The notes beneath the pieces are model-generated. The model saw nothing but the letters and a program-made list of their open reading frames with translations. It was not told where the DNA came from and did not search any database. DNA of 52,141 bases from Thermomicrobiales bacterium (GTDB lineage: Bacteria; Chloroflexota; Chloroflexia; Thermomicrobiales; UBA6265), in assembly GCA_034667245.1 (NCBI GenBank), contig JAXDKI010000175.1, positions 1-52,141 on the forward strand, read 5' to 3'. The position numbers were made by a program, and so were the translations under genes. Of this stretch, positions 17,792 through 51,176 are shown in pieces (within the stretch, counting starts at the first letter, position 1; every line of letters starts with the position of its first letter).

Positions 17792-19093
17792 ATGTCACTC
17801 GCCGGATTGAAGGTCTTCGAGCGCGGCACCTTCCCGCGCTGGCTCAAAGTCCGGCAGCAGCTGGAGGCGACGGAGATCGCCGACGTCGCCGCCGCCGTCG
17901 CGGAGCAGTTCGCCCGGCCCGAGATCGCCGCGACGATCCAGCCCGGCGCCCGCGTCTGCCTCACCGCCGGCAGCCGTGGCGTCGATCGCATCGCCCAGGT
18001 CCTCAAAGCCGCCGTCACCGAAGTGAAGCGACTCGGCGGCGAGCCCTTCGTCATCCCCGCCATGGGGAGCCACGGCGGTGCCACCGCCGAAGGTCAACTG
18101 GAGCTCATCCACCACTACGGTGTCACCGAGGAGGCCATGGGCTGCCCGATCCGCAGCAGCATGGAGACGGTCCTCCTCGGCGAGGTCCACAACGACGACG
18201 ATCACGTCCCCGTCTACTTCGATCGCACCGCCTACGAGCAGGCCGACGTCGTCATCCCGATCGGCCGCATCAAACCCCACACCGACTTCCACGGCCCGAT
18301 CGAGTCCGGCGTCATGAAGATGATCGCGATCGGTCTCGGCAAGCAAAAAGGCGCCGACACCTTCCACTCGCGCGGCTTCCCGGTCTTCCACACCCTCATT
18401 CCGGCCGTCGGGCTCTTCACGCTTAGCCGCGTCAACATCCCGTTCGCCATCGGGCTCGTGGAGAACGGCTACAGTCACCTCGGCCTGATCGAGGCCATTC
18501 CCAACCGCCAGATCCTCGACCGGGAGAAGGAACTCCTCCGGATCGCCCGCGATTGGCTCGGCCGCCTCCCCGGTGAGCGTCTCGACGTCCTGATCGTCGA
18601 CGAGATCGGCAAAGATGTCTCCGGCGACGGCGCCGACCCCAACGTCATCAACCGCGACGTCGTCGGCCTCATCGCCCAGAGCGAGCTGGTCTTCCGGCCC
18701 ACCATCCAGCGCGTCATCTTCCGTGACCTCACCGAGGCGACCGAGGGCAACGCCACCGGGGTCGGCATGGCCGACGTCGTCCTCCGCCAATTGGTCGACA
18801 AGATCGACCGCGTTGCCACCTATATGAACCTGATCACCGCCAAAGGCCCCCAGGGCGCCAGAATCCCGATCACCGTCGACACCGACCGCGAAGCCCTCTA
18901 CATCGCCCTCGCCTGTTGCCTCCGCACCGAGGTCGAAACCGCCCGCATCGCCCGCATCCAGAGTTCCAAATACGTCGAGGAATTCTGGGTCTCCGAACCC
19001 TTCCTCCCCGAAATCCTCGCCACCGGCCGCGTCGAACCCCTCACCGACCCCGCACCCATCGCCTTCGACGCCAACGGGATGTTTGTGGACTGA
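17792..19093 (+). CDS. LarA-N/DUF2088-like domain protein (function unknown; family from memory)
   Basis: ATG at 17792 with GAGGAGG 6 nt upstream. 433 aa. CLTAGSRGVDRI...VIPAMGSHGGATAEGQ...RIKPHTDF pattern. The longer ORF from 17387 has an implausible N-terminus. Confidence 0.75.
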   Translation: MSLAGLKVFERGTFPRWLKVRQQLEATEIADVAAAVAEQFARPEIAATIQPGARVCLTAGSRGVDRIAQVLKAAVTEVKRLGGEPFVIPAMGSHGGATAEGQLELIHHYGVTEEAMGCPIRSSMETVLLGEVHNDDDHVPVYFDRTAYEQADVVIPIGRIKPHTDFHGPIESGVMKMIAIGLGKQKGADTFHSRGFPVFHTLIPAVGLFTLSRVNIPFAIGLVENGYSHLGLIEAIPNRQILDREKELLRIARDWLGRLPGERLDVLIVDEIGKDVSGDGADPNVINRDVVGLIAQSELVFRPTIQRVIFRDLTEATEGNATGVGMADVVLRQLVDKIDRVATYMNLITAKGPQGARIPITVDTDREALYIALACCLRTEVETARIARIQSSKYVEEFWVSEPFLPEILATGRVEPLTDPAPIAFDANGMFVD

Positions 19094-19121
19094 GCCGATA
19101 GCCGATAGCCGACAGCCGATA
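19094..19121 (+). repeat. Tandem heptad repeat (GCCGATA)x4
   Basis: gccgata gccgata gccgaca gccgata, starting 1 nt after the TGA stop at 19091-19093. No complementary arm seen downstream. Confidence 0.85.
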
Positions 19122-19353
19122 GGAGAACGATCAACCACCTTCTTGCCAGAGATTGATGGTAGGATCGTGACTGTTCATCGAAGCGCCGTCGCTCAAGCAA
19201 AATCGTCATTCCGAGCTTGTCGAGGAATCTCTCTCCGCAAGAGGCAACGGCGCGGCAATAGAGACCGGTCGTCCTAGCCCCGAGCGGGCTTCATCGCTTC
19301 AGCCCCGCGTCGAAACCCGGGGTCCGTCATACCAGGGGCCAAACGCGACACCC

Positions 19354-23132: not shown

Positions 23133-23196
23133 CGAAACGCGGCACGCGATCCGGCCCTTCTCTCCCGAGAACTTCGTGCAATGCCGGACAAACAAG

Positions 23197-23217
23197 GGGA
23201 GGGCCCCGTGCCCTCCC
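23197..23217. repeat. REP-like hairpin GGGAGGGC-N5-GCCCTCCC, copy 1
   Basis: gggagggc cccgt gccctccc. Lies between convergent genes (stops at 23132 and 23379). Confidence 0.8.
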
Positions 23218-23265
23218 GTGCCAATGAACACGCTTCTCCCTCTCGATCACGGTGCCGATGAACCC

Positions 23266-23286
23266 GGGAGGGCACAGGGCCCTCCC
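23266..23286. repeat. REP-like hairpin GGGAGGGC-N5-GCCCTCCC, copy 2
   Basis: gggagggc acagg gccctccc, followed by ctacccc. Lies 48 nt after copy 1. Confidence 0.8.
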
Positions 23287-23378
23287 CTACCCCGAAGCCG
23301 CTATCGCGCGGTCACTCGCTTTATGTCACCTGCGCCGGTTCGGGCGGCTCCACTGTCGTGCTCGAAGCAGGCTACGGC

Positions 23379-31443: not shown

Positions 31444-32739
31444 ATGGTACGAACGTTGAATCGTCGGCAGTTCGTTGGAACCGCCGCGGGCGCGGCGGCC
31501 GGGCTCTCGCTCGGTCTGCCAAACCTCGGCACCAGGTCGGCGCTCGCTGCGACCGAGATCAACTGGGCAGTCAACGCCTGGGCACCGACCGAGACCAGTC
31601 TCGTCGAGAAAGTCGTCGCAAACCTTATGGCGATGAATCCCGAGCTCAAGGTCGACGTCCTCGGCTATGATCCGAACACCTACGATCAGAAGCTCCTCGC
31701 CGACATCGTGGCCGGCACGCTGCCCGACATCTTCGTTAGCGCAGACGTCTACACCAAGCCCTTCTTCGACGCTAATCTGACCGCCGACCTCAAACCGTTC
31801 ATGGACAAGACCGGGCCGAAGATCGAGGAGTTCGACGAGAAGTTCATCGCTCTCGCCCAGTACGATGGCAAGGTCGGCTTCCTGCCGCGCGCCGCCGACG
31901 TGGTCGTCCTCTATTACAACAAGCGAATGTTCGACGAGGCCGGCGTGGCCTACCCGACCGAGGACTGGACGCTCGACGACCAGATGAGCGCCGCTGAGAA
32001 GCTGACGAAGAAGGCCTCCGACGGGACGACCACGCAGTACGGTCTGACGGCCAACTACACCTGGTGGGCATACTGGGTGCCACTCGTCGTCGCACAGGGC
32101 GGCCAAATCCTCAGCGAGGACAACACCAAAGCGGTGTTCAACTCGCCGGAAGGTATCAGTGCCTGGGACTTCATCTTCAGCGGTCTCAAGAACGGTTTCT
32201 TTGTTCCCTATTCGGTTCAGCAGTCGATGGGCGGTGATTCCGTCCCGTTCGCGAACGGCACCGCCGCGATGATCCCAACGATTCGCGGCCTGACCCCCTC
32301 ATTCCGCGAACAGCTCAAGGACGACTGGGACGTGACCCTGGTGCCGAAGGGCAAGGTCGACCGCAAGACCGGCATGGGAACGATGGGTTACGCGATGTCG
32401 TCCCAGACGAAGAACCCCGAGGCAGCCTGGGAGGTTCTCAACTACACCTTCACCGAAGGGATGAAGGTCTTCATGGAGACCTACCTCCTGATCCCGCCGA
32501 TCAAGAGCTTCTACGATGATCCGACCTGGCGCAATCTCCCCGGTCCGCCCTACAGCAACGACATCTTCGTCACCGCGATGGACACCGCCATGCTGCCGCC
32601 GAGTCTGCCCTTCTACAGCACCGGCCCCTTCAACCAGGCGATGAAAGACGGTCTCGACGCGGTGGTCCTGGGCCAGATGACGACCGAAGAGGCCGTCAAC
32701 CGGATGGCCGAGGAAGCCACCAACGCGCTGAAAAGCTGA
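31444..32739 (+). CDS. Sugar ABC transporter substrate-binding protein (family 1 / CUT1), Tat signal
   Basis: 431 aa. LNRRQFVGTAAGAAAGLSLG signal. AAGGAG SD. Confidence 0.9.
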   Translation: MVRTLNRRQFVGTAAGAAAGLSLGLPNLGTRSALAATEINWAVNAWAPTETSLVEKVVANLMAMNPELKVDVLGYDPNTYDQKLLADIVAGTLPDIFVSADVYTKPFFDANLTADLKPFMDKTGPKIEEFDEKFIALAQYDGKVGFLPRAADVVVLYYNKRMFDEAGVAYPTEDWTLDDQMSAAEKLTKKASDGTTTQYGLTANYTWWAYWVPLVVAQGGQILSEDNTKAVFNSPEGISAWDFIFSGLKNGFFVPYSVQQSMGGDSVPFANGTAAMIPTIRGLTPSFREQLKDDWDVTLVPKGKVDRKTGMGTMGYAMSSQTKNPEAAWEVLNYTFTEGMKVFMETYLLIPPIKSFYDDPTWRNLPGPPYSNDIFVTAMDTAMLPPSLPFYSTGPFNQAMKDGLDAVVLGQMTTEEAVNRMAEEATNALKS

Positions 32740-32745
32740 CGTTTT

Positions 32746-32866
32746 GAGTCGTTAGTCGTCGGTCGTCAGTCGTCAGAACGGAGTTTCAGAGTCGCACGTG
32801 ACAAGAAGCGACGGCTTGGAGCTTGCCACGTGCGACTGACGACTGACGACCGACGACTGACGACTC
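32746..32866. repeat. Heptad-armed inverted-repeat element, copy A (121 bp)
   Basis: The 31-nt arms at 32746-32776 and 32836-32866 are reverse complements with 1 mismatch. The arms are tandem (A/G)GTCGTC heptads. There is an inner 11-bp stem at 32790-32800 / 32827-32837. Confidence 0.9.
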
Positions 32867-32882
32867 GCCCGTAGGAGGCACG

Positions 32883-33809
32883 ATGGCGCTGTCGCAGGCG
32901 ATGCCTCGGGTGCGTCAACGCACCCGGTTTCGACTGGGAGCGAATCGCGATTGGCCGTGGGCGCTTTTTTTCCTCGCCCCCAATCTCATCCTCTTTCTCG
33001 TGTTTTTTGCCTACCCCATCGTCTACGGGTTGTACATCAGTCTCTTCGACTGGAAAATCATCGGGCCCAAGAAGTGGGTCGGGATCGGTAATTATGTCGA
33101 CTTCTTTGGGGACGACCTGACCCGGAAGCTCCTCTGGAACTCGATCTACTACGTCGTCGGCTCGACCGTTCCGTTGATCCTCCTCTCGCTCGGTATCGCG
33201 ACGCTGCTCAACACCGTCGTCTACGGCAAGTACGCCTGGCGGGGACTCTACTTCCTGCCCCTCGTGTCGTCGCCGGTGGCCGCGGCGGCCGTCTGGAAGT
33301 GGCTCTATGCCAAGGACCAGGGGCTGATCAACTACGCCTTTGTCCAACTCGGCGGCGATCGCATCGACTGGTTGTACAACACGCGCTGGGCGCTCCCGTC
33401 GCTGATCCTGATGACGATCTGGCAGCTCCTCCCCTTCAACACGATCGTCTATCTGGCTGGGTTGCAGGAGGTTCCGCGGTCGCTTTACGACGCCGCCGAG
33501 GTCGACGGCGCAACCGGCTGGCGGAAATTCCGCGACATCACCATCCCGCTCGTGACGCCGACGACCTTTTTTGTCATCATGATCACCCTCTTCAGCCTTC
33601 TCTTCGGCAGCTTCGACATCATCAACGTGATGACACAAGGCGGCCCGATCGATTCGACCAATGTCTTCGTCTACAACATCTATCAAAACGCCTTCAAGTT
33701 CTTCAGAATGGGCTACGCCTCGGCCGAGGCGTATCTCCTGTTCCTCGTCGTCTTCGTCCTAACGTTGGGCAACTGGGCTTTGCAGAAACGGTGGGTGCAC
33801 TACGAATGA
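32883..33809 (+). CDS. Carbohydrate ABC transporter permease (MalF/UgpA-like)
   Basis: 308 aa. AGGAGG SD. EAA loop region SLYDAAEVDGATGWRKFRDITIPL. Confidence 0.9.
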   Translation: MALSQAMPRVRQRTRFRLGANRDWPWALFFLAPNLILFLVFFAYPIVYGLYISLFDWKIIGPKKWVGIGNYVDFFGDDLTRKLLWNSIYYVVGSTVPLILLSLGIATLLNTVVYGKYAWRGLYFLPLVSSPVAAAAVWKWLYAKDQGLINYAFVQLGGDRIDWLYNTRWALPSLILMTIWQLLPFNTIVYLAGLQEVPRSLYDAAEVDGATGWRKFRDITIPLVTPTTFFVIMITLFSLLFGSFDIINVMTQGGPIDSTNVFVYNIYQNAFKFFRMGYASAEAYLLFLVVFVLTLGNWALQKRWVHYE

Positions 33810-34642
33810 GCGACAAGCGCTTCCGGTTCACACCGTCCTGGCTGGTTCTCTACCCGTTGCTCGTCCTCGGCGCGCTGGCGGCCGTCATCCCTTTCCTCTG
33901 GACCCTTTCGACGTCCCTCAAGGGTCCGGAAGAGGTCTTCGCCTATCCGCCCCGCTGGATCCCCAGCCCGTTCGTCTGGTCCAACTACGCTGACGCGTTC
34001 CACATCATCAGCGGGCGAACGTTCCTCAATTCCGTGATCTTCGCGGCGAGCATCGTCCTCTTCCAAGGGCTCGTGACGACGATGGGCGGATTCGCCTTTG
34101 CCCGCCTTCGCTTCCCCTTCCGCGACCAGGTCTTTCTCCTCTATCTCGGCACGATGATGATCCCACCCCAGGTGACGATGATCCCCACCTTCATCGTCGT
34201 CGTCGAGCTGGGCTGGATCAACACCTACCAGGGACTGATCGTCCCGATCGTCGCCCAGGGCGCGTTCGGCACCTTCATGTTCCGGCAGTTCTTCGCCAAG
34301 ATCCCGAACGAGCTCTACGAGTCGGCCCGTCTGGACGGCGCCAACCCGCTGCAGCTCTACTTGCAGTTGACGCTTCCTCTGAGCCGGCCGGTCCTGACTG
34401 CCTACGGCGTCATCACCTTCCTTACCGCCTGGAACATGTACCTCTGGCCGCTGATCGTCGTTCGCTCCACCGAGATGAAGGTCGTCCCCATGGCGATCGC
34501 CGAGCTCGCCGGTGGCTTCTCGCGGGATCGCGGGGTCGAGATGGCCGCGGTCTCACTCTCGATCTTGCCGATTCTCGTCCTCTGGGTCATCGGCCAACGG
34601 TGGTTCGTCGAAGGGATCGCCCTGACCGGCATGAAGGGATAG
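33806..34642 (+). CDS. Carbohydrate ABC transporter permease (MalG/UgpE-like)
   Basis: ATG at 33806 overlaps the upstream TGA (ATGA). EAA loop ELYESARLDGANPLQLYLQLTLPL. Confidence 0.9.
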   Translation: MSDKRFRFTPSWLVLYPLLVLGALAAVIPFLWTLSTSLKGPEEVFAYPPRWIPSPFVWSNYADAFHIISGRTFLNSVIFAASIVLFQGLVTTMGGFAFARLRFPFRDQVFLLYLGTMMIPPQVTMIPTFIVVVELGWINTYQGLIVPIVAQGAFGTFMFRQFFAKIPNELYESARLDGANPLQLYLQLTLPLSRPVLTAYGVITFLTAWNMYLWPLIVVRSTEMKVVPMAIAELAGGFSRDRGVEMAAVSLSILPILVLWVIGQRWFVEGIALTGMKG

Positions 34643-34646
34643 GTAC

Positions 34647-34671
34647 GAGCTTTGAGCTTTGAGCTTCGAGC
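34647..34671 (+). repeat. Tandem heptad repeat (GAGCTTT)x3.5
   Basis: gagcttt gagcttt gagcttc gagc, between the permease stop (34642) and the preferred isomerase start (34691). Confidence 0.75.
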
Positions 34672-34690
34672 GGGACAACGGGAGGGACAA

Positions 34691-35488
34691 TTGGCGTTAC
34701 GGTTCGCGTACAGCACGATCAACTGGGGTGAGACACCCGATCTGGAGACGACCTTCGGGGAGATCCGGGAGGCCGGGTGGGACGCCGTCGAACTCTTCTG
34801 GCACTCGCTCGACTGGCTGGGGCCGATGCCACGGCTGCTGACCGCGCTGGGCGATCTTCAAGTTGCCACACTCTTCGGCGCGGTCAGCCTGCCGACCGAC
34901 CGCGTTCAGCTGACGAAGCTGAAGAACCACGTCGACTACGCGGCCGAGCTCGGCGCCGAGGCATTTGGCATGGTCGGTGGCAACCGCTTGCGCTGGCGAC
35001 CGCCGTCCGACGCCGAGTACAGCGATCTCGCCCGGTTCTGCGAAGAACTCGCCGAGTACGGGGCGGAGCGCGGAGTCACTATCGCCTATCACCCGCACGT
35101 CGCCTGCACGATCGAGACGGAGGAGGAGATCGATCGCTTGATGGCGGAGACAAGTGCACTCACCCTCTGCCTCGATGCCTCGCACATCGCCCTCGTCGAC
35201 GAAGACCCGATCGCCCACATGGGGAAGTACCGGTCGCGTACTGGGTACATCCACCTCAAGGACTGGGCACGGGGCAAGTTCGTCGAGATGGGTCAAGGCA
35301 CGCTCGGGATCGACTTCGGCGCGATCCTCCGCGACCTCGAAGACCATCAGTTCGGTGGCTGGGTCGTCGTGGAGCAGAGTCGCAGCGACGTCTCCCCCGC
35401 AGCAAGCGCGCAGACCAACGCCGCCTTCCTCCAGAGTCTCGGCTATTCGCTGCGGCAACCGACTGCCGCCGCGCGGGGAGTCGGCTGA
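34691..35488 (+). CDS. Sugar phosphate isomerase/epimerase (xylose isomerase-like TIM barrel)
   Basis: The ORF is open from TTG 34652. TTG 34691 follows GGGAGGGA and gives MALRFAYSTINWG, a typical N-terminus. HPH and HLKD metal-ligand contexts. Confidence 0.82.
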   Translation: MALRFAYSTINWGETPDLETTFGEIREAGWDAVELFWHSLDWLGPMPRLLTALGDLQVATLFGAVSLPTDRVQLTKLKNHVDYAAELGAEAFGMVGGNRLRWRPPSDAEYSDLARFCEELAEYGAERGVTIAYHPHVACTIETEEEIDRLMAETSALTLCLDASHIALVDEDPIAHMGKYRSRTGYIHLKDWARGKFVEMGQGTLGIDFGAILRDLEDHQFGGWVVVEQSRSDVSPAASAQTNAAFLQSLGYSLRQPTAAARGVG

Positions 35489-36618
35489 TGGCCGGCGAGC
35501 GGATCAAGATCGTCGTCTGGGACAGCATCGGCAACACCCTGCTCGGTGTCCGCCCCTGGTCGAGTTGGGACGAGAAGACCGTCGCCCACTTCCTCCGCGA
35601 GGACCCGGCGGGTGCCGAGCACGCGCCGAGTTTCCGCCAGCTCTTCGCCGGTCGCGACGTCGATCTCGTCTGGTTCAACAGCGCCGACGGACCATACGCC
35701 CCCTTCGGTCAGCTCTACGCCGACTACGAGGGCAGCGTCCGCTTCACCCGCTCCGTCGACGAGATCGCCGCGGAGATCCCCGACGCCGATTACCTCGTCC
35801 TCCACAAGGAGCGGCTCCCCGCCGACGCCCTCCGCACCGCCCGTAAGCTGAAGCTCGTCCAGCATCTCGGTCAGGACCACCGCGGCGTCCCGACGGATGC
35901 CACGCGGGAGCTCGGGGTGCCGGTCGCGGCCACACCGCTCGTCAACTACATCACGGTGGCCGAGCACGTCTGGGCCTTCGTCCTCAACTGGCTGAAACGC
36001 CTCCCCGCCCTCCGCGAGCACATGCGGACCCGCGATTACGCCGATACCTGGGGACTCTTTCCGAACGTTCGTTACGCCGGCGACGTCACCCTTGGCATCC
36101 TCGGCATGGGCGAGATCGCCCGGCCGATCGCTCGCTACGCCCAGGCGTTCGAGATGCCGGCGGTCTACTGGGACATCGAGCGATTCCCCGACCTGGAGGA
36201 GAAGTACGGCGTCCGCTTCGTCGAGTGGGACGAGATCTTCCGCACCTCCGACGTCCTGACCGTCCAACTCGCCCTCAACGACAAGACGCAGGGCATCATC
36301 GGCGCCAGGGAGATCGGCCTGATGAATCCGACCTCCCTCTTCATCAACACCGCCCGCGGCAAACTCGTCGACCAGCCCGCGCTGACACGAGCAGTCGCCG
36401 ACGGCCAAATCGGCGGCGTCGCCCTCGACGTCTTCGCCGAGGAGCCACTCCCCTACGATGACCCGCTCTTGGCCCTCCACGATCAACCCGGCGACCGCGT
36501 GACGCTGACCCCGCACTGTGCCTGGCAAAGCCCCTGGACCTGGGTTCGCGACTCCCAGGAGATCTGGCTGAACGTCCTGCGATCCTTGAACGGAGAACCG
36601 CTGAAGCATCTGGTGTAG
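35488..36618 (+). CDS. D-isomer-specific 2-hydroxyacid dehydrogenase family, NAD-binding
   Basis: ATG overlaps the upstream stop (TGATG). GILGMGEIARPIA dinucleotide fold, TARGKLVD, DVFAEEP, TPHCAW. About 60 aa of extra N-terminus. Confidence 0.85.
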   Translation: MAGERIKIVVWDSIGNTLLGVRPWSSWDEKTVAHFLREDPAGAEHAPSFRQLFAGRDVDLVWFNSADGPYAPFGQLYADYEGSVRFTRSVDEIAAEIPDADYLVLHKERLPADALRTARKLKLVQHLGQDHRGVPTDATRELGVPVAATPLVNYITVAEHVWAFVLNWLKRLPALREHMRTRDYADTWGLFPNVRYAGDVTLGILGMGEIARPIARYAQAFEMPAVYWDIERFPDLEEKYGVRFVEWDEIFRTSDVLTVQLALNDKTQGIIGAREIGLMNPTSLFINTARGKLVDQPALTRAVADGQIGGVALDVFAEEPLPYDDPLLALHDQPGDRVTLTPHCAWQSPWTWVRDSQEIWLNVLRSLNGEPLKHLV

Positions 36619-36656
36619 ACGTCACGTCTATCTCTGTCCCCTTGGAGAAGCATGGC

Positions 36657-37733
36657 ATGACGACGCCGCAATTCGGTTTCTGCGTTCCCATCTTCGCCTG
36701 CCCCGGCCACAACCTCTTCCGCACCCCGAACTTCCCGGAGCTCGACGCCGCGACGACGATGTCGATTGCCAAGCGCGCGGACGAACTCGGGTACGACTCG
36801 CTCTGGGTGGCGGACCACCTGATGCTCGGCAAGGACGAGGCGATCCTCGAGGGCTGGACGGTCATCTCCGCCCTTGCCGGCGCCACCAGCCGGGCGAAAC
36901 TCGGGATGATCCACCAGGCGCTGCTCTTCCGGAATCCAGCCCTCGCCGCCAAGATGGCGGCCACACTCGATCAGATCTCCGGCGGACGCCTGATCCACTT
37001 CATGGACTGCGGGTACATGCGCCGCGAGTACGTCAACTACGGACTCCCCTGGGACGACGACATGGAGGCGAGGATCGCCAAGCTTGTCGAGGCGACCGAG
37101 CTCATCCTCGCCCTCTGGGCAGCCGACGGCCCCCTGACGCGCCAAGGTCCCGCCTACGAGGTGACCGACGCCGTCTGCACCCCCAAACCGGTCCAGCAAC
37201 CGCACCCGCCCCTCTGGTTCGGCGAAGCCACCCCCGGCATTCTCGACGCCTGCGCCCGCTTCGGTCAGGGCTGGAACACGACGCCCGTCTCGCTGCCGGA
37301 GCTGCGGCGTCGCCTCGACCTCCTCGGCGCGGCCTGCGAGCGCGCCGGCCGCTCGCTGAACGATCTCGAGTTGAGTCTCGAAACCCAGATTCTGGTCGCA
37401 CCCGACGTTGCCGCACTCCGCGAGCGACTGCGCGAGATGGTCGCCCTCACCGAAGATGCCGGCCAGAACCTGCCGAACGAGATCCAGCCGTTTCTCGACA
37501 GCTATGCGATGGCGCCCGACTTCCGCGCCTTCGTTGATGGCACGACCGATGCACTCCCGAGCCGGATGATCGAGGACTGGGTCGTCGGCACACCTGACCA
37601 GGTCGAGCAGCGATTACGCGCCTACATGGCCGAGGGGATCAGCCACTTCATGCTCTGGTTCATGGACGCGCCGCGCACCGACGGACTTGACCTGTTTGCC
37701 TCGGACGTCATACGGCGGTTTCAGGAGGCGTGA
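36657..37733 (+). CDS. LLM-class (luciferase-like) flavin- or F420-dependent oxidoreductase
   Basis: ATG 36657 with GGAGAAG 6 nt upstream (the ORF is open from TTG 36642). GYDSLWVADHL and PHPPLWFG motifs. Confidence 0.85.
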   Translation: MTTPQFGFCVPIFACPGHNLFRTPNFPELDAATTMSIAKRADELGYDSLWVADHLMLGKDEAILEGWTVISALAGATSRAKLGMIHQALLFRNPALAAKMAATLDQISGGRLIHFMDCGYMRREYVNYGLPWDDDMEARIAKLVEATELILALWAADGPLTRQGPAYEVTDAVCTPKPVQQPHPPLWFGEATPGILDACARFGQGWNTTPVSLPELRRRLDLLGAACERAGRSLNDLELSLETQILVAPDVAALRERLREMVALTEDAGQNLPNEIQPFLDSYAMAPDFRAFVDGTTDALPSRMIEDWVVGTPDQVEQRLRAYMAEGISHFMLWFMDAPRTDGLDLFASDVIRRFQEA

Positions 37734-38524
37734 TGAGCGATCCCTCCACCGAGCGTCGCGTCGCCCTCGTCACCGGCGCCACTCGCCGCAACGGGATCGG
37801 CGCCGCGATCTGCCGTGCGCTCGCCGCGGCAGGCAACGACGTTGCGTTCACACACTGGCGACGCTATGACCAACAGTTTTCGTGGGGCGCGCAATCCGAA
37901 GATGCGCCAGCTCTACTGGAGGAACTGCGGGCCACCGGTGTGCGAGCAGAGGCATTCGAGGTCGACCTCTCGCTCCCCGAGACACCGACCCGGCTCCTCG
38001 ATCTGGTGACGGACCAACTGGGACCGCTTTCGATCCTTGTCAACAACGCAGCCTATTCGACGCAGGACGGCTACGAAGCACTCGACGCCGCGACACTCGA
38101 CGCCCACTACGCCGTCAACATCCGCGGCATGGCGCTGCTCAGCGTCGAGTTCGCGCGGCGCTGGCCGGGCGGTCGCGGTGGCCGGATCGTCAACCTCACC
38201 TCGGGACAGTCGCTCGGCCCAATGCCGACCGAGCTCGCCTACGCCGCGACAAAGGGAGCAGTCGAGGCGTTCACCCGCTCCCTCGCCGACGGAGTGGCCT
38301 CACGTGAGATCACCGTCAACGCCGTCAATCCCGGGCCAACCGACACCGGCTGGATCGACGACGACTTGCGGGCGGAGTTGTTGCCGAGTTTTCCCTTCGG
38401 CCGCATCGGCCTGCCCGAGGATGCCGCGCGCGTGGTCGCCTTTCTCGCGAGCGAGGAGGCGGCCTGGATCACGGGACAGGTCGTCCACTCCGAGGGCGGC
38501 TTCCGGCGAGGAGCGCCGCGGTAA
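37733..38524 (+). CDS. SDR family oxidoreductase
   Basis: TGATRRNGIGAAI cofactor motif. Catalytic YAATKGAVEAF. ATG 37733 overlaps the upstream TGA (GTG 37730 is also possible). Confidence 0.88.
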   Translation: MSDPSTERRVALVTGATRRNGIGAAICRALAAAGNDVAFTHWRRYDQQFSWGAQSEDAPALLEELRATGVRAEAFEVDLSLPETPTRLLDLVTDQLGPLSILVNNAAYSTQDGYEALDAATLDAHYAVNIRGMALLSVEFARRWPGGRGGRIVNLTSGQSLGPMPTELAYAATKGAVEAFTRSLADGVASREITVNAVNPGPTDTGWIDDDLRAELLPSFPFGRIGLPEDAARVVAFLASEEAAWITGQVVHSEGGFRRGAPR

Positions 38525-39829
38525 CTACGCCGCCGCGGTTGTGCGGCGACGACCGCCGGCGACCTTCTCGCCCTTCAACGGATAGGTCGCAACGAAGACC
38601 GTGTCGTCGCTGCCGAGCTGAACCAGCGACGGCAGTTCCCAGCCGACAATCTCTTCCCGCCGGCGATCGATCAGCCACTGTAGCGCGTCGGCCAGCTCCA
38701 GCGACCCGCCCTTCTGCCGCTCCCGGTCGAGCGCCGAGAGCGCGGTCAAGACCGTCGGCGAGAGGACGTAGCGGCCGAGGACGGTGCTGACCGCCTCGGG
38801 ATCGCAGGGCGGCTCGCAGCACGAGATCGGGTGGCGCGCGTCCGGTTTTTCCGCCAGGAGTTCGATCGGCCGCAATCCGTGCTCGTTCGGCACCGACCGC
38901 AACCGGGCGAGACCGTAGTTGCGGCGGTTGACTTTCAGCTTGCCGACCGCCACCACGCTGGAACCGCCTTCGGCATAGTGCTCGGTCAACTGCTGGAGAA
39001 CCGCCATTCCCGTCCCGGGACGGTCGAAGTGATTGTCGGGCAACAGCACCGCGAACGGCCGCTCGCCGATCAGCGGTCGCGCCTGAAGAATCGCGTGGCC
39101 GAGGCCGAGCGCCTCCGACTGCGGCACGCAGCTCAGGCGTTGCATCCGCTGCGCGAACGACGCGCCGGCAAACGCGGCGTGCAACCCGGCGATCTCGGCC
39201 GGCGGCAGGATCACCACCAACTCGCGGATACGCGCCTTCATCGCCTCGGCAGCGGCGCGGTCGAGCGCGGCGACAATCTGGTCGCGCGTCCACTCCCGCC
39301 ATTGCCAACCGGCGATCGGGATGCAGCAGACCGGGACCGGACCGGGTGTGCGCCACCAATCGACGGTGGCGATCACCTGCGCGGCCTTCGACCGGGCATC
39401 TTCGAGGAGCATCTGCCGAACGAGATCGGCCTCCTCGATCGCCAGCCCCGCGTCCGCGAGAACACGCGCCAGTTCGCCGTCGAGCGAGAGCCCGGCCGGC
39501 TGCGTCTCCCAGTCATGGCTCTGGCGCCGGGGGATGACCACGGTGCGCGCGGGGCGCTCCTTCTCCTGCGCTCCCGCAACCTCACGATCGTAGGCATCGA
39601 GCAACTGCGCATGAGGGAGAGCGAGAACTCGCTGGTATCCGGCAACCAACTCCCGGGACGGGCGGACCGTTCGATTCTCGACCGCCGAGAGATGTGCCTT
39701 CGAATAGCCGAGTTGTCCGGCCATCTCGCCCAGGCTCATCGACCGCTCTTGCCGGGCGAGGCGCATCCGTGCGCCAAGCGGGAGCGTCTCGACGCTCCCA
39801 GCCGGGATCGGGTTCTCTTTTCGGGCCAT
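38525..39829 (-). CDS. XRE-family HTH regulator fused to a degenerate UTP-glucose-1-phosphate uridylyltransferase (GalU)-like domain
   Basis: ATG 39829 with GGAGGA 5 nt upstream. HTH: LGARMRLARQERSMSLGEMAGQLGYSKAHLSAVENR. C-terminal domain aligns by eye to GalU (ALGLGHAILQARPLIGERPFAVLLPDNHF, LAEKP, VLGRYVLSP, LELADAL), but the G-x-G-T-R-x-L-P-x-T-K loop reads IAGWQWREWTRDQ. Confidence 0.8.
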   Translation of the reverse strand: MARKENPIPAGSVETLPLGARMRLARQERSMSLGEMAGQLGYSKAHLSAVENRTVRPSRELVAGYQRVLALPHAQLLDAYDREVAGAQEKERPARTVVIPRRQSHDWETQPAGLSLDGELARVLADAGLAIEEADLVRQMLLEDARSKAAQVIATVDWWRTPGPVPVCCIPIAGWQWREWTRDQIVAALDRAAAEAMKARIRELVVILPPAEIAGLHAAFAGASFAQRMQRLSCVPQSEALGLGHAILQARPLIGERPFAVLLPDNHFDRPGTGMAVLQQLTEHYAEGGSSVVAVGKLKVNRRNYGLARLRSVPNEHGLRPIELLAEKPDARHPISCCEPPCDPEAVSTVLGRYVLSPTVLTALSALDRERQKGGSLELADALQWLIDRRREEIVGWELPSLVQLGSDDTVFVATYPLKGEKVAGGRRRTTAAA

Positions 39830-39876
39830 CGTCGTCCTCCGTTGGACGCGCACCTCATCAGCAACCTGCACCTATC

Positions 39877-39904
39877 AATCTAACATTTGTTGACGAAATA
39901 GCAA
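39877..39904 (-). promoter_or_regulatory. Candidate promoter for the XRE/GalU-like gene
   Basis: Minus strand reads TTGCTA (39904-39899), 16 nt spacer, TAGATT (39882-39877), in the only AT-rich patch of this spacer. Confidence 0.3.
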
Positions 39905-39915
39905 GGGCCGCTAGC

Positions 39916-39973
39916 GAGACGGCAGGCGGACGGGCGGACAGACGGACGGGCGGACAGACGGAGAGACGGAGAG
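39916..39973 (-). repeat. Tandem octamer repeat of the same family (read on minus strand: CTCTCCGT CTCTCCGT CTGTCCGC CCGTCCGT ...)
   Basis: Plus strand reads gagacggcaggcggacgggcggacagacggacgggcggacagacggagagacggagag. Bracketed by CCGCTAG (39908-39914) and CTAGCGG (39999-40005). Confidence 0.85.
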
Positions 39974-40020
39974 TAAACGCCCTGGGCGATTGTTACTCCT
40001 AGCGGTTAGCGGCTCGTGGC

Positions 40021-40962
40021 TCACTCGGCATCGCCAACGCTTCTGACGTCGAGCGCATCCCGAAGGCCGTCGCCGAAGAGGTTGAGCGCGAGCACGGTGA
40101 GGACGATCGCCAGTCCGGGGAAGACGCTGATCCACCAGGCCTGCCGGACGAAATCCCGCCCCTCGTTCAGCGCCATCCCCCAGGTTGGCGTCGACGGGTT
40201 CACGCCCAGCCCGATGAACGTCAGCGCCGCCTCGGCCAGAATCCCCAGGCCGACCGCGAACGTCGTCTGGACGATGATCGGCGCCGCCATGTTCGGCAGG
40301 ATGTGCCCGAACATGATCCGCCGGTCGGTCGCGCCGATCGACCGCGCCGCGGTCGTGTAGTCCTCTTCACGCAGACTCAATACCTGCGATCGCACGATCC
40401 GCGCGAAGTCGTCCAGGTACGCCACCGCGATCGCGACCACGACGTTGCGAAACCCTGCCCCGAAGACCGCGACCATCGCCACCGCCAGCACGATCACCGG
40501 GAAAGCCCAGAGCAGATCGATCATCCGCATGATCAGGCTGTCGAGCCAACCGCCGTAGTACCCCGCCACCAGCCCGAGCAACACCCCGACCGCCATTGCC
40601 GACAGCGCCGCCAGCAATCCCACCGTAAACGAGACGCGCGTGCCGACGATCACCCGGCTCAGCAGATCCCGCCCGAACGAGTCCGTCCCCATCGGGTGCG
40701 ACCAACTCGGCGAGGCAAACAGATCGTAGTCGTCCGCCAGGGGATCGTACGGCGCGATCACCGGTCCAATCGCGGCCACGAGCGCCAGCAGACCGACGAA
40801 GACCAGACCGAGCAACGCCTTGCGCTCCCGGCGCAATCGGCGCCAGAATCGATTCCCGACCGCGGCCCGCCGGCGCTCGGCCAGGACCGTGAGGCGATCC
40901 TCGGCCGCCAACTCGCGCTGTCCGATCGCGCCGGGGCGGTCGGCGCTCGCCTCCCTAGCCAT
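40021..40962 (-). CDS. ABC transporter permease (DppC/OppC-like)
   Basis: 313 aa. GPVIAPYDP. C-terminal GDGLRDALD. 8-nt overlap with the upstream permease gene. Confidence 0.88.
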   Translation of the reverse strand: MAREASADRPGAIGQRELAAEDRLTVLAERRRAAVGNRFWRRLRRERKALLGLVFVGLLALVAAIGPVIAPYDPLADDYDLFASPSWSHPMGTDSFGRDLLSRVIVGTRVSFTVGLLAALSAMAVGVLLGLVAGYYGGWLDSLIMRMIDLLWAFPVIVLAVAMVAVFGAGFRNVVVAIAVAYLDDFARIVRSQVLSLREEDYTTAARSIGATDRRIMFGHILPNMAAPIIVQTTFAVGLGILAEAALTFIGLGVNPSTPTWGMALNEGRDFVRQAWWISVFPGLAIVLTVLALNLFGDGLRDALDVRSVGDAE

Positions 40963-41902
40963 ACTTGATCCTCGGATCGAGGACGGTGTAGACGATGTCC
41001 ACGATCAGGTTAGCCAGGACGAACGTGACCGTCGTCAGCAGGATCACCCCCTGCACGATCGGGTAGTCCTTGTCGAAGATCGCGCCGACCAGAATCCGGC
41101 CCAGACCACGGATTGAGAAGACCGTCTCGACGACGACCGCACCGCTCAACAACAGCGCCAGCTGAATCCCGGCCACCGTCACCACCGGGATCATCGCGTT
41201 CCGGAGCGCGTGCCGAACGATCACGCCCCGCTCCGAGACCCCCTTCGCCCGCGCCGTCCGGATGTAGTCGCTGTTCAACACCTCCAGCAAGCCGGCCCGC
41301 ACAAACCGCATCAGGATCGCCGCGTAGCCCGCGCCGATCGCCAGACTCGGCAGCAGCAGGTGCTCGAACCAGGCCCGCAACCCGTCCTCGCCGATCGGCG
41401 AGTAGCCGACCGCCGGCAACCACTGCAGCTTGACGGCAAAGATCAAAATCAGGATGATCCCGAACCAGAACCCGGGCATGCTGACGCCGACAAAGGCGAC
41501 GACACTCGCCACGTAGTCGACCGCCGAGTTTCGACGCAGCGCCGAGACGATCCCCGCCGGCACCGCGATCAGCACCGCCAGCGCGAACGAGAGCGCCGCC
41601 AGGCTCATCGTCTTCGGCAACCCAGTCTTGATCGCACTCATCACCGGCTCGGGCGACGAGATCGACGTGCCCAAATCCCCGGTCAGCACGTTGCCGGCCC
41701 ACTTCGCATACTGGACGTAGATCGGCTGATCTAGCCCCAGCTTTCGCCGCAGTGCCGTCGCCGCCTCCGGCGTGTACTCGGGCCCCAACATCACCACGAC
41801 CGGATCGCCCGGCACCAGACGCAGCATGAAAAAGACGAGGGTGGCGCACCCCCAGATGATGAACACCGCATGGATCAACCGCCGGAGGATGTACTGGGCC
41901 AC
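40955..41902 (-). CDS. ABC transporter permease (DppB/OppB-like)
   Basis: 315 aa. MAQYILRRLIHAVFIIWG. C-terminal DPRIKYG. GTG start with a GGGAG SD. Confidence 0.9.
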   Translation of the reverse strand: MAQYILRRLIHAVFIIWGCATLVFFMLRLVPGDPVVVMLGPEYTPEAATALRRKLGLDQPIYVQYAKWAGNVLTGDLGTSISSPEPVMSAIKTGLPKTMSLAALSFALAVLIAVPAGIVSALRRNSAVDYVASVVAFVGVSMPGFWFGIILILIFAVKLQWLPAVGYSPIGEDGLRAWFEHLLLPSLAIGAGYAAILMRFVRAGLLEVLNSDYIRTARAKGVSERGVIVRHALRNAMIPVVTVAGIQLALLLSGAVVVETVFSIRGLGRILVGAIFDKDYPIVQGVILLTTVTFVLANLIVDIVYTVLDPRIKYG

Positions 41903-41954
41903 GGCGCCACTCCCAAGTTCGAGTGGGGAAACGCGCTCATGAACGCGGCATGCT

Positions 41955-41984
41955 CCCCCTTTCCCCTAAAGTTGGGAAAGGGGG
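41955..41984 (-). terminator. Intercistronic stem-loop after the binding-protein gene
   Basis: ccccctttccc ctaaagtt gggaaaggggg, a perfect 11-bp stem, between the stop at 42016 and the permease start at 41902. Confidence 0.45.
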
Positions 41985-42015
41985 TTTGGGGGGATAGAGG
42001 GCCCTACTCGCGCCC

Positions 42016-43653
42016 CTACTTATCGAGCCACACCGACTCGAGGTAGCGCATCTCCGGGATCGGGACGTAGCCCTTCACCGCGTTCGCGAAGGCGACGACG
42101 TCGGGCGTGTGGTAGAGGAAGGCGTAGGCGACGTCCTGCGCCGTTGCCGCCTGGATCTGCTGGAAGAGCTTGGCCCTGTCTTCCTGAACCGCCGTAGCGC
42201 GGGTCTGTTCCAGCATCTGGTCCACGGTCGGGTTGTTGTAGCCGTACGTATTCCACGGCCCCTCCGAGTAGAAGAAGTTCCAGTGGCCGTCGTCCGGGTC
42301 GGCGTCGACCACGCTGCCGTTGACGATCCAGTCGAAGTCCTTCGCCAGCCAGCGCTCGTTCCAGGCCGCCTGCTGCAGCAACTCGATCTGCATCTCGATG
42401 CCGACATCCCGCATCTGGCTCTGGAGAACCTCGGCGACCCGGTTGTTGCCCTGGGCGAACATCAGGGTCGGTTTTGCACCCTTGACGCCGGTCTGCTCCA
42501 CGGCCGCGGTCGCCGCCTCCTTATCGAACGCCTGCGGATTCTCGACCTGATCCGGCGGCAGGTAGGCGAACCCGAAGGCCGGCGCGATCGCCCCGACGCT
42601 CGGTTGGGCGAGACCGAAGAGCGCCTTCGAGATCAGGTCCTCGCGATCGATCGCCTTCGCGACCGCCATCCGCGCTTCGACCGTGTCCCACGGCGGACGC
42701 GCGTAGTTCATCGTCAAACCGACCCAGTTCGTCCCCTGCACTTCGACGACCGTGACGTCGCCATTCCCCTTCAGCTGCTCGACGCCGACCGCCGGCGCGA
42801 TGTCGAGCATGTCGACATCGCCCGCTTCCAGCGCGCTGACCATACTCGACGGCTCGGGGATGATCGTCACGTCGATTCCATCGACGTGTGACCGACCGCC
42901 ATACCAATCGTCGAACGCCACGAGTTTGAACCCACTCGCGAGATCGACCCCCTCCGGCACGATCTTGAACGGCCCGCAACCGATCGGCGTGATCCCGAAC
43001 TGCTCGTCCCCTAGCTCGTCGATCGCCCGCTTGGAGATGGGCGTCAGGGCTCGGCCCGGCCCGCGGCTGCAGGCGGTCGCCAGGAACGGCGCGTAGGGCG
43101 CGCTCATCTTGATGAGGAAGGTGAGTTCGTCGGGGGCGGTCGCTTCGGTCACCAGGCTGAGCTTGTTGGCGTGGGGCGAGGCGAAGTCGGCGTTGGTCGT
43201 CCGCTGGTAGGTGTAGACGAGGTCGTTCGCGTTCAAGGGATCGCCGTTGTGGAAGCTCAGACCCTGGCGGAGCTTGAAGGTGTACTGCATCCCGTCCGGC
43301 GCGACCTCCCACGTTTCAGCGAGGTCGGCCACGAGCCCGAGCTGCTCGTCGAACTGGACGAGACTGGAGAAGAGGTTCGAGACGATCTCACCGGCGACGA
43401 TCCCGAGGTTGACCTGCGCGGGATCGAGGGTCGGGATCTGGCTGATCCCGAAACCGAGCCTCAGCGTCCCACCCTTCTTCGCCTCTTGCCGCGCGATGCG
43501 GAGCCGCCGCTCACCGACGCCGCCCGCCGCGCTCGCCTCGAAGGCGGCCAGGCGACCGGCGAAACCGAAGGCCCCCGTCGCCGCGGCCAGCTTCATCATC
43601 GTCCGCCGCGAGACGCGCGGCCCGCTCAAGACACTCCAATCGATCCGGGTCAT
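42016..43653 (-). CDS. ABC transporter substrate-binding protein, family 5, Tat signal
   Basis: 545 aa. VSRRTMMKLAAATGAFG signal. GAGGAGGAG SD upstream of ATG 43653. Confidence 0.9.
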   Translation of the reverse strand: MTRIDWSVLSGPRVSRRTMMKLAAATGAFGFAGRLAAFEASAAGGVGERRLRIARQEAKKGGTLRLGFGISQIPTLDPAQVNLGIVAGEIVSNLFSSLVQFDEQLGLVADLAETWEVAPDGMQYTFKLRQGLSFHNGDPLNANDLVYTYQRTTNADFASPHANKLSLVTEATAPDELTFLIKMSAPYAPFLATACSRGPGRALTPISKRAIDELGDEQFGITPIGCGPFKIVPEGVDLASGFKLVAFDDWYGGRSHVDGIDVTIIPEPSSMVSALEAGDVDMLDIAPAVGVEQLKGNGDVTVVEVQGTNWVGLTMNYARPPWDTVEARMAVAKAIDREDLISKALFGLAQPSVGAIAPAFGFAYLPPDQVENPQAFDKEAATAAVEQTGVKGAKPTLMFAQGNNRVAEVLQSQMRDVGIEMQIELLQQAAWNERWLAKDFDWIVNGSVVDADPDDGHWNFFYSEGPWNTYGYNNPTVDQMLEQTRATAVQEDRAKLFQQIQAATAQDVAYAFLYHTPDVVAFANAVKGYVPIPEMRYLESVWLDK

Positions 43654-43800
43654 CTGGCGCTCCTCCTCTGGGGCGTGACTGTCGTCACCATTCGCCGCAC
43701 CACCGACGCCGGGGCCGGCGCATCTGCCGTTTGAGCCGAGCGTTCTCGAGTCTGACCGGTATCGGTTGTTAGCCTCCTTTCACGAGCCGTACATCGGCAC

Positions 43801-43908
43801 GAGTCGTCAGTCGTCAGTCGTCAGTCGTCAGAACGAGGAGCGAGATCGCTCTCGTTTCCGCGATGCAGCATCTCTTCGAACTTCTCGGCTACTGACGACT
43901 GACGACTC
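43801..43908. repeat. Heptad-armed inverted-repeat element, copy B (108 bp, asymmetric arms)
   Basis: Left arm is gag + (tcgtcag)x4 at 43801-43831. The 17-nt right arm ctgacgactgacgactc at 43892-43908 is perfectly complementary to the left-arm start. Confidence 0.9.
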
Positions 43909-43986
43909 CGTCATACTGGAGATTCCTCGCCCGGCCAGCAGCAACGAGCCGATCAATTCCACGACGCGAACCGCGACCGCGTTGCG

Positions 43987-44475
43987 TTAGGCGTATGCAC
44001 GTGCTGTGTGGAAATCACGACCGAGCCCGAGCGAAACATCCTCGCGGTCGAGCGCCGCTTCCTGGCGATCCACGAGTCCATCAATGGCGGCCAGGTCTTC
44101 GCCGGTTGCCCGGAGCGCCGCACGAGCCGCGATCTCCGGCTCCACGATCAATCTGATCTCCCAGAGATCGCCGACGGTGTCCCCCGGCGCCTGGAGCACC
44201 AGGGCCAGCGGTGAGACGGCGTCGCAGGAGACGGCGTCGCGGACAAAGGTGCCGCCCCCGTGGTGCGACTCGACCAGTCCGGCGCTCTCCATCGTCCGCA
44301 ACGCCTCGCGCAACGACGAGCGGCTAACCCGCAGCTGGTCGGCCAGCTCCCGCTCCGGTGGGAGCCGACCGCCGGCACGGAACCGGCCCTGGCGGATCAC
44401 CTCGCAGAGCTGAAGCACGATCTGGTGCGACAGCCGTGAACGCCGTACCGGTTCGACGAGAGCCCCGTTGCTCAT
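43987..44475 (-). CDS. GntR/FadR-subfamily regulator, apparently truncated (winged HTH intact, FCD domain cut short by an in-frame TAA)
   Basis: 162 aa. wHTH LPPERELADQLRVSRSSLREALRTMESAGLVESHHGGGTFV. The FCD part ends at DFHTARAYA-stop, and FCD-like sequence continues in frame after the stop (see findings). Confidence 0.7.
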   Translation of the reverse strand: MSNGALVEPVRRSRLSHQIVLQLCEVIRQGRFRAGGRLPPERELADQLRVSRSSLREALRTMESAGLVESHHGGGTFVRDAVSCDAVSPLALVLQAPGDTVGDLWEIRLIVEPEIAARAALRATGEDLAAIDGLVDRQEAALDREDVSLGLGRDFHTARAYA

Positions 44476-44494
44476 CTCACATCCGGCGGTTCAC

Positions 44495-44505
44495 TGGTTG
44501 GACCA
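44495..44505. promoter_or_regulatory. FadR/GntR-type operator-like palindrome TGGT-N3-ACCA
   Basis: ctGGTTGGACCAat lies 20 nt upstream of the GntR start (44475) in the divergent GntR/ppdK spacer. It resembles the E. coli FadR half-site arrangement TGGTNNNACCA. Confidence 0.35.
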
Positions 44506-44594
44506 ATCGCGATGCGGACACCTTACCGCCGCCTGGCCGCAGTGTCAATCGCCCGGTTTCCGTAAGGACCGCCCCTCAAATCGGGCCGGCCGTA

Positions 44595-44623
44595 TTGACA
44601 ACGAACTCACACTGAGATATTTG
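44595..44623 (+). promoter_or_regulatory. Candidate promoter for ppdK
   Basis: TTGACA (44595-44600), 17 nt spacer, TATTTG (44618-44623), followed by an AT-rich discriminator. About 65 nt upstream of ATG 44689. Confidence 0.4.
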
Positions 44624-44688
44624 ATTGTTTGTTATTCGAATGGTCGGGCGCGACGGCCGACGACCGATCTCCAGGGAGGTGTGCCACG

Positions 44689-49932: not shown

Positions 49933-50052
49933 GAGTCGTCGGTCGTTCGTCGTCACACTAAGGACTCGGGTATTCATTGTCCTCATTGTTTGATCGCCCC
50001 CGACGTCCATCCGGCACCAGAGCTAACCGCTGACGACGAACGACCGACGACT
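49933..50052. repeat. Heptad-armed inverted-repeat element, copy C (120 bp)
   Basis: agtcgtcggtcgttcgtcgtca (49934-49955) is perfectly complementary to tgacgacgaacgaccgacgact (50031-50052), 22/22. Confidence 0.9.
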
Positions 50053-50063
50053 GGTAACTCACG

Positions 50064-51037: not shown

Positions 51038-51176
51038 GAGTCGTCGGTCGTCAGTCGCCAGTCGCCAGTCGCCAGCGATTGGACTTCGGTGCCGGTCGCG
51101 ACCGCCGGGGGCGATTGGCACAACGAGGACGACGAGTACCCAGGATCGTGATTTAACGACTGACGACTGGCGACTC
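51038..51176. repeat. Heptad-armed inverted-repeat element, copy D (139 bp, GTCGCCA variant heptads)
   Basis: Left arm gagtcgtcggtcgtcagtcgccagtcgccagtcgccag at 51038-51075. Right arm cgactgacgactggcgactc at 51157-51176 pairs 18/20 with the left-arm start. Confidence 0.85.

Follow-up and report, generated by a model that had tools for sequence, protein, structure and literature searches.

The window analysed here, i.e. the whole stretch of 52,141 bp, is a complete contig of a Thermomicrobiales MAG. In one of its operons, the spacer between the gene of a solute-binding protein and that of a permease is filled by a heptad-armed hairpin, referred to below as copy A (Table 1). The TGA of the binding-protein gene occupies positions 32737-32739 and copy A begins 6 nt later, while 16 nt separate its end from the permease ATG at 32883; both distances agree with the first-pass annotation of this DNA. 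That annotation described two 31-nt arms, complementary with one mismatch and made of about 4.5 heptads each, and this description holds: the arms are 31 nt long, 97% complementary and 59 nt apart, and both are period-7 arrays (4.3 and 4.7 copies, TRF). The inner stem reported at the same time is also real, but it is longer than the 11 bp claimed, comprising 16 nt (32790-32805 / 32822-32837; 94%, one mismatch). Folded as sense RNA, as had been proposed, copy A is very stable (MFE -91.2 kcal/mol, z = -11.3 in folding against shuffles).

Table 1. Coordinates of copy A, its neighbours and the further copies in the window
Feature	Position	Strand	Description
Copy A, whole element	32746..32866	+	heptad-armed hairpin filling the spacer between binding-protein gene and permease gene
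Copy A left arm	32746..32776	+	GAGTCGT TAGTCGT CGGTCGT CAGTCGT CAG, ~4.3 RGTCGTC units
Copy A core	32777..32835	+	starts CAGAACGG; holds the inner 16-bp stem; lag-7 periodicity
Copy A right arm	32836..32866	+	(GACGACY)n, ~4.7 units; TGA in 3/3 frames
Binding-protein gene upstream of copy A	31444..32739	+	extracellular solute-binding protein, SBP_bac_1 / SBP_bac_8
Shine-Dalgarno AGGAGG of permease gene	32873..32878	+	free, 6 nt past copy A right arm
Permease gene downstream of copy A	32883..33809	+	ABC permease, BPD_transp_1
Copy B	43801..43908	-	long arm 43801-43831, 4.3 units; short arm 43891-43908, 2.4 units
GntR/FCD regulator gene, truncated	43909..44475	-	in-frame stop 43987-43989; adjoins copy B
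Copy C	49933..50053	-	arms 49934-49955 / 50031-50052, 22 nt, 100% complementary; from epimerase E2 stop to UDP-glucose dehydrogenase start
Copy D	51038..51176	-	arms 51038-51075 / 51155-51176, AGTCGCC variant units; between epimerases E1 and E2

Three further elements (copies B, C and D) had been announced together with their termini, and all of them are present. The four copies (4/4) pair into inverted arrays and lie between co-directional genes, those around B, C and D being on the minus strand. All eight arms (8/8) have period 7, with 2.4-5.3 units (TRF), and a two-heptad pattern matches the window 18 times, compared with 0.47 matches expected; 0/100 shuffles reach 18. Copies A, C and D begin 6-11 nt past a stop codon. 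The arms of B and D are unequal (4-5 versus 2.4 units and 5.3 versus 2.9 units, respectively), which implies that the extra units are not needed for pairing.

Copy B occupies the expected 3' end of the GntR/FCD gene. When the in-frame stop is read through, the match to the FCD profile grows from positions 1-58 to positions 1-85 of 125, and the frame continues to the copy B arm. The gene is a remnant, in which the last ~40 profile positions, i.e. the last third of the domain, are missing; the same 162-aa GntR/FCD call appears in three sister assemblies.

Sister MAGs and JGI metagenomes yielded the same loci in independent assemblies, which shows that the elements do not result from mis-assembly. 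Copy A is where five other assemblies of its locus (L001-L005) stop, either within the element or at most 6 nt from it. Such breaks in five samples are as expected if the arms recur elsewhere in the genome, and they hint at many copies; in practical terms, these elements fragment short-read assemblies of such genomes. Two of these five assemblies end in a spurious ...GTCGTGGG(G) tip.

Sister contigs that are ~99% identical in the flanks were used to compare the copies between strains. In copy B, the long arm consists of 4 units in the window, compared with 5 in L127 and 2 in both L135 and L136, and the only other difference between the strains, over core and flanks, is one flank substitution; copy D has gained or lost one unit in either arm. 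In copy C the strains differ by substitutions only, of which 2/3 fall within or beside the arms; substitutions between sister contigs are concentrated in the arms. That near-identical strains differ by indels of a whole heptad (7 nt) is direct evidence of slippage, by which the arms are lengthened or shortened unit by unit. Mis-assembly of the unit number is unlikely, as the arrays are shorter than a sequencing read.

The first-pass annotation had also called the cores unrelated. This is wrong for C and D, whose cores, compared as C(+) with D(-), reach a local score of 26 versus 8.2 ± 1.5 in shuffles, and right for the other five pairs among A-D, which score at shuffle level. The homology of C and D spans the whole element (77% identity over the whole spacer), and the two are diverged, inverted copies of one element. 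Their opposite orientation is uninformative: an element whose two arms recombine with each other would turn its core around. BLAST of the cores against all collected loci returned matches only to the cores themselves and to sister strains. The arm-core junction GTCAGAACGR is common to A, B and an AGTCGTY element of the lineage L168 (U1-E1 junction, Table 2); AGAACG alone is too common to interpret and was used only by its position at this junction. The C/D homology and the motif common to A, B and L168 indicate that whole elements are sometimes copied between spacers. The choice between mobility and slippage, previously left open, thus has an answer on both sides: slippage is evident from the 7-nt indels, and element copying is indicated by the homologies just described.

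The cores themselves retain traces of the heptad. The match at lag 7 amounts to 0.38 in the core of copy A versus 0.25 ± 0.06 (p = 0.02), and a similar periodicity is seen in the cores at the C site of L165 (p = 0.01) and at the D site of L168 (p < 0.002). Since this periodicity is kept and the arms are purest toward their outer ends, the ‘variable core’ consists, at least partly, of old and decayed heptad units.

Periodic-armed hairpins fill most co-directional spacers in this Thermomicrobiales clade. They lie 0-11 nt from the preceding stop and, in most cases, 12-18 nt from the next start. Stems of at least 15 bp were found in 15/43 tandem, 2/8 convergent and 0/9 divergent spacers, the divergent ones being longer and yet devoid of long stems; the difference between divergent and other spacers (0/9 versus 17/51, hypergeometric p ~0.04) comes from a small sample in which orthologous sites are counted repeatedly. 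In the lineage L167, stems of at least 15 bp are present in 0/8 spacers.

Several other repeats were noticed in the window. An octamer array (GTCCGTCT)~5 at 17737-17775 of the + strand ends 17 nt before the ATG at 17793, beside GAGGAGG, and a complementary array (AGACGGAC)~7 at 39917-39970 starts 46 nt upstream of the start (39871) of a minus-strand HTH gene. The two are members of one family with the same orientation to the gene start, and represent 5'-leader repeats distinct from the hairpin elements. Two solo arrays have no inverted partner nearby, i.e. (AGCCGAT)4.3 at 19091-19122, which overlaps the TGA at 19091-19093 and is followed by AGAACGA, and (GAGCTTT)3.6 at 34644-34672, which begins 2 nt past the stop of the second permease gene. 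An inverted repeat with 24-nt arms (AGGGGAGGGCCCCGTGCCCTCCCG and its complement, 96%), located at 23195-23288 between convergent genes, is probably a bidirectional terminator; similar C/G-run hairpins occur at 41955-41984, past the SBP_bac_5 gene, and in the relative L133, where they occupy the site of copy A. Period-12/24 repeats (CCGACC-rich) at 7630-7810, inside the gene of an SLT-domain protein (6949-7878), resemble a coding low-complexity linker and are unrelated to the heptad elements.

Some known classes of elements could be set aside. A known RNA or tRNA was rejected, as Rfam 15 (gathering score, whole window) and tRNA scans gave no match. Integron attC-like sites, considered because C and D flank a single gene, were rejected as well, since neither GTTRRRY cores nor an integrase are present and relatives have kept the order of the genes. 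The copies do not qualify as canonical intrinsic terminators either: the hairpin is there, but the sequence after it (gcccgtagg, ccgtcatac and the like) has no U-tract in any copy, and the 11 terminator-like sites detected in 32200-52141 all lie off the elements.

The most informative comparison is that of the same junctions in relatives. At the orthologous binding-protein/permease junction, 5/5 relatives (71-82% aa identity) have a stable hairpin of 11-22 bp. The sequences of these hairpins are unrelated, and AGTCGTC units are present in 0/5. Within the window, a strong hairpin lies directly 3' of every binding-protein gene (4/4). A stable stem-loop directly 3' of the binding-protein cistron, kept across relatives, is the mark of the malE-malF type, and its presence here gives comparative support to the analogy with the malE-malF REP hairpins drawn in the first-pass annotation. 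The empty sites that a comparison of orthologous loci was meant to reveal were not found in a clean form, as these junctions hold other hairpins.

Copies C and D belong to a sugar-nucleotide operon that encodes, in this order, Bac_transf, UDP-glucose dehydrogenase U1, epimerase E1, epimerase E2, dehydrogenase U2 and epimerase E3. The operon was recovered from five further lineages, i.e. from six including that of the window (Table 2).

Table 2. Occupants of three junctions of the sugar-nucleotide operon in six lineages
Lineage	U1-E1	E1-E2 (D site)	E2-U2 (C site)
Window lineage	GGCAGAR arms (L134)	AGTCGTC / AGTCGCC	AGTCGTC
L165 (E2 85%)	AGTAGYC	plain GC hairpin	AGTCGTC
L166 (E2 84%)	AGTTGYC	22-bp hairpin	GAGGCGT heptads
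L168 (E2 82%)	AGTCGTY	RGTYTCA heptads, 31 bp	AGGCGGCR octamers
L170 (E2 79%)	GGTCTCR	plain GC hairpin	RGGCGGA heptads
L167 (E2 69%)	25-nt spacer	26-nt spacer	weak hairpin, 67-nt spacer

Nearly every junction is occupied by a hairpin with periodic arms, and the sequence of the unit evidently turns over between lineages at one and the same junction. Even at the C site of the window and L165, where the arms are AGTCGTC in both, the cores cannot be aligned, with flanks that are ~85% identical. In an alignment of three U1-E1 hairpins and copy C, a small sample with hand-chosen arms, 6/17 pairs had changed on both sides and 98.4% of the cells were paired; the covariation score was reached by 0/500 shuffles. 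Judged from this alignment, both arms change in step and their complementarity is kept. The hairpins are nonetheless dispensable for the pathway, as the operon of L167 manages with 25-26-nt spacers.

Two side observations concern the same operon. The hairpin located beyond the window's end (L134:953-1048; arms GGCAGAR / YTCTGCC) carries in its loop the 12-mer AAGAACGAATCG, which is also found in the loop of the octamer-armed hairpin of L168 (C site, 6977-6988); the two differ in arms, junction and lineage. In L165, two overlapping ORFs (7498-8211 and 8199-8864) are called in place of the first UDP-glucose dehydrogenase gene (7498-8864), owing to either a frameshift or a sequencing error.

Similar elements are found well beyond this lineage. 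At least 120 stretches of (AGTCGTC)3 occur in the species-representative genome collection. Among the matches listed, many are solo arrays, and clear inverted pairs with variable cores are found in another Thermomicrobiales MAG (L043), in several Terriglobia, a 71%-GC ‘Deltaproteobacteria’ MAG and Thermoanaerobaculia. The inverted-array loci outside the window that are capable of forming a stem-loop include L029, L043, L078, L113 and the Terriglobia loci. The further copies in L043, the Terriglobia and other MAGs, together with those at the C site of L165 and the U1-E1 junction of L168, bear out the earlier proposal that the elements form a family. Two Terriglobia species have kept such a hairpin, with a different loop, in orthologous positions (the aligned region has a mean column identity of 86%). 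A rough assignment of gene context for 120 foreign loci, made with a noisy GC3-based caller, placed 14/15 paired elements between tandem or convergent genes.

In L016, L029, L030, L047 and L078 (71%-GC ‘Deltaproteobacteria’ MAG), hairpins of a second heptad, (GGTCGAA)n / (TTCGACC)n, are nested inside the AGTCGTC-armed elements. Those of L016, L029 and L030 are each followed by the common motif GCGAG(C/T)GGCGACACG. The left arms of the elements in the ‘Deltaproteobacteria’ MAG often begin 0-14 nt past a stop codon.

The AGTCGTC unit itself is not special. In viral contigs, three composition-matched scrambled heptads, all of which keep TCAG across the unit boundary, were found at 10, 3 and 10 loci compared with 5 for AGTCGTC, and 2/3 of them also form inverted pairs; the idea of a privileged unit was rejected on these grounds. 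An 8-kb Thermomicrobiales locus (L059) contains nine arrays of period 7, in which about seven types of unit are represented and GGACTCA forms two pairs. The general phenomenon is that of paired heptamer microsatellites with lineage-specific units.

With modest confidence, we consider it probable that the elements are paired heptanucleotide microsatellites, grown by slippage, which serve or are tolerated as intercistronic 3' stem-loops. Two inverted RGTCGTC arrays bracket a core of largely older, decayed units, and the whole spacer folds as one hairpin, which extends from a few nucleotides past one gene's stop codon almost to the ribosome-binding site of the next. The arms gain and lose units by slippage while staying in step, and whole elements are sometimes copied elsewhere. 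Presumably co-transcribed with the operon, the stem-loop would act like the malE-malF REP hairpin, i.e. as a barrier to 3'-to-5' exonucleases and/or as a leaky terminator; this would hold the upstream cistron, that of the binding protein, above the permease genes in abundance. The heptad composition would then be a mutational route to build and renew hairpins, and not the functional feature itself. We infer this RNA role, whether as exonuclease barrier or as leaky terminator, from the position of the elements. At binding-protein junctions, they would very probably substitute for the ordinary protective hairpin. It should be added that a perfect 20-30-bp duplex could be a target of RNase III, so that the message would be destabilised rather than protected.

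The folding of the two strands bears on this question. Among 25 hairpins, the sense strand folds better in 14 and the antisense strand in 11 (p = 0.31), i.e. there is no RNA-specific signal, and G-U pairs are rare. As the strands fold equally and G-U pairs are rare, the near-perfect complementarity exists at the DNA level, without a signature of selection on the transcript. This suits another explanation, which we regard as possible, if rather doubtful: that the elements are functionless, self-expanding DNA, produced by slippage and hairpin-templated repair, whose growth is limited by the stop codon and the ribosome-binding site, whose persistence is due solely to the tolerance of these spacers and whose RNA effects are incidental. 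Besides the near-perfect DNA-level palindromes without sense-strand bias, this would account for the unit-number polymorphism between strains, the unequal arms, the fast turnover of unit and core, the spacers filled exactly to their functional boundaries, the location of copy B within a decayed gene and the same operon without elements in L167. It is less easily reconciled with the hairpin present at the binding-protein/permease junction in 5/5 relatives whatever its sequence, and with the absence of long stems from divergent spacers, though these are longer. Moreover, arms that remain complementary through unit changes need either selection or a templating mechanism, the latter being hypothetical.

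A DNA-level process may also go further and build and renew long perfect palindromes from 7-/8-nt units in nearly every intercistronic spacer of this Thermomicrobiales clade, an idea that we consider unlikely. It could consist of slippage combined with hairpin-templated copying of one arm from the other, or of gene conversion between elements through their arms; a new variant of the unit would then spread through both arms at once. If true, this would constitute an undescribed, self-organising ‘palindromic microsatellite’, which makes operon stem-loops de novo without a transposase, perhaps also in Terriglobia and others, and would also account for the paired heptamer arrays of Xanthomonas.

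It seems improbable that the elements are non-autonomous mobile elements of the MITE or REPIN kind, in which the heptad arms would be terminal inverted repeats or REP-like sites used by a transposase encoded elsewhere. Like MITEs, they are small (108-139 bp), intergenic, bounded by terminal inverted repeats and present in multiple copies, and mobility would explain why C and D are diverged copies of one element, why A, B and the U1-E1 element of L168 have an arm-core junction in common, why the AGTCGTC family occupies different junctions in different lineages, why copy B interrupts a gene remnant, and why short-read assemblies break in copy A in five samples, as they do for a dispersed repeat. 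However, no target-site duplication is present: the flanks of A-D have no common direct repeat, as the first-pass annotation had already remarked. The cores are unrelated except for C/D, there is neither a family-wide core nor a parent IS, and the arms vary by whole units; a MITE was rejected for want of a target-site duplication in the A-D flanks and of a shared core. No transposase, RAYT or integrase was found in a Pfam scan of essentially all window genes, the orthologous sites hold other hairpins rather than being cleanly empty, and one sequence-specific enzyme would not explain how many units give the same architecture.

Arrays of binding sites for a heptad-recognising DNA- or RNA-binding protein, i.e. 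a post-transcriptional regulator as proposed for the TAACTGA repeats or a nucleoid or replication factor, are highly improbable, since, despite the recurrence of AGTCGTC at several sites in several phyla and the ACTGA that CGACTGA has in common with the Beggiatoa TAACTGA (PMC4679880), the unit differs between close lineages at one orthologous junction, viral contigs contain scrambled heptads no less often, some of them also as inverted pairs, and sites in a hairpin would be buried in duplex.

Returning to paired microsatellites that serve or are tolerated as stem-loops, in our view a DNA-level process makes and maintains the palindromes, and the needs or the tolerance of operon spacers influence where they lie. 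To our knowledge, heptamer microsatellites in bacteria have no accepted function. The comparative series presented here (unit swaps at one junction, co-varying arms and whole-unit indels) leads to a testable picture of the birth and replacement of stem-loops, in which a mutational process, and neither transposition nor tinkering by point mutations, would renew them.

Among known systems, the REP sequences of E. coli operons offer an analogy in function. REPs are fixed sequences of 20-40 nt, for which spreading by RAYT transposases has been proposed (PMC3116915), and in ABC operons of E. coli the stabilised cistron is invariably that of the binding protein, protected by a 3' hairpin (PMC5927463). 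Like REPs, BIMEs and REPINs, the elements are extragenic palindromes between cistrons, i.e. inverted doublets with a spacer that can form a hairpin in ssDNA or mRNA, and copy A lies 3' of a binding-protein gene, as does the malE-malF REP stabiliser (PMC5927463). Whereas the repeated unit of REPs and REPINs is a fixed, imperfect palindrome of 20-40 nt, each arm here is a tandem array of 7-mers that vary in number and in sequence; the relation is one of resemblance in likely function, not of membership.

Heptanucleotide units are, according to Mrazek (2007) as quoted in PMC4679880 and PMC4692102, the most over-represented class of long SSRs, with slippage as the proposed origin. In the TAACTGA repeats of marine Beggiatoaceae (MacGregor 2015, PMC4679880), which are intergenic heptamer arrays scattered over distant phyla, 169 sets are direct and one is inverted, and most of them lie just before start codons, overlapping the ribosome-binding site. 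The present unit is reminiscent of these repeats, as CGACTGA, a rotation of the complement of AGTCGTC, includes ACTGA and provides TGA in 3/3 frames. In contrast to TAACTGA, it forms inverted pairs past stop codons and leaves the ribosome-binding site free. The analogy with the cyanobacterial STRRs (Mazel 1990, as cited in PMC4679880 and PMC4692102), made already in the first-pass annotation, is apt, because both are tandem heptamers in non-coding DNA. In these second-hand accounts, STRRs are described as direct arrays, without hairpin pairing around a core, and their units and phylum differ from those of the present elements.

The closest counterpart is found in Xanthomonas. The first-pass annotation could not name a known element of this composition; convergent pairs of heptamer arrays near the upstream ORF have in fact been described in that genus (PMC4692102), and the elements analysed here represent, in the Thermomicrobiales, the paired heptamer microsatellites, a little-studied class known from Xanthomonas and cyanobacteria; they are located where an operon commonly has a stem-loop that protects its mRNA. 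In Xanthomonas, the GGGAATC repeats form ~185 arrays per genome, mostly of 4 units, of which 89-93% are intergenic (Rehm 2015, PMC4692102). Their mean distance to the upstream ORF is 28 nt, much shorter than that to the following ORF, and they are under-represented between divergent genes. In each genome, 70-75 pairs of arrays converge and could form a stem-loop (PMC4692102). Their length differs between species, while site and type are kept, and they are transcribed, with no known function (PMC4692102). The agreement is considerable, as head-to-tail 7-nt units, convergent pairs, a non-coding location near the upstream ORF and a variable number of units at a kept site are found in both. On the other hand, the host belongs to another phylum (Thermomicrobiales, Chloroflexota), the elements fill operon spacers exactly, and, unlike in the reports from Xanthomonas, several unit families coexist and swap at orthologous junctions with both arms compensating.

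The units themselves also differ in an informative way. Rehm (2015) stressed the formation of G-quadruplexes by GGGAATC, the Nostoc counterpart of which is GGGGAYT (PMC4692102). RGTCGTC has no run of three G and cannot form a G-quadruplex, which leaves the hairpin as the sole structure on offer; lacking G-runs, the elements belong to the broad heptamer class and not to the GGGAATC/GGGGAYT sequence family. The only detailed study of heptamer microsatellites read them as G-quadruplex elements, whereas here the paired architecture is built from a quadruplex-incapable unit in another phylum. As the same paired architecture exists in another phylum with a unit unable to form quadruplexes, the hairpin is the common denominator of these elements.
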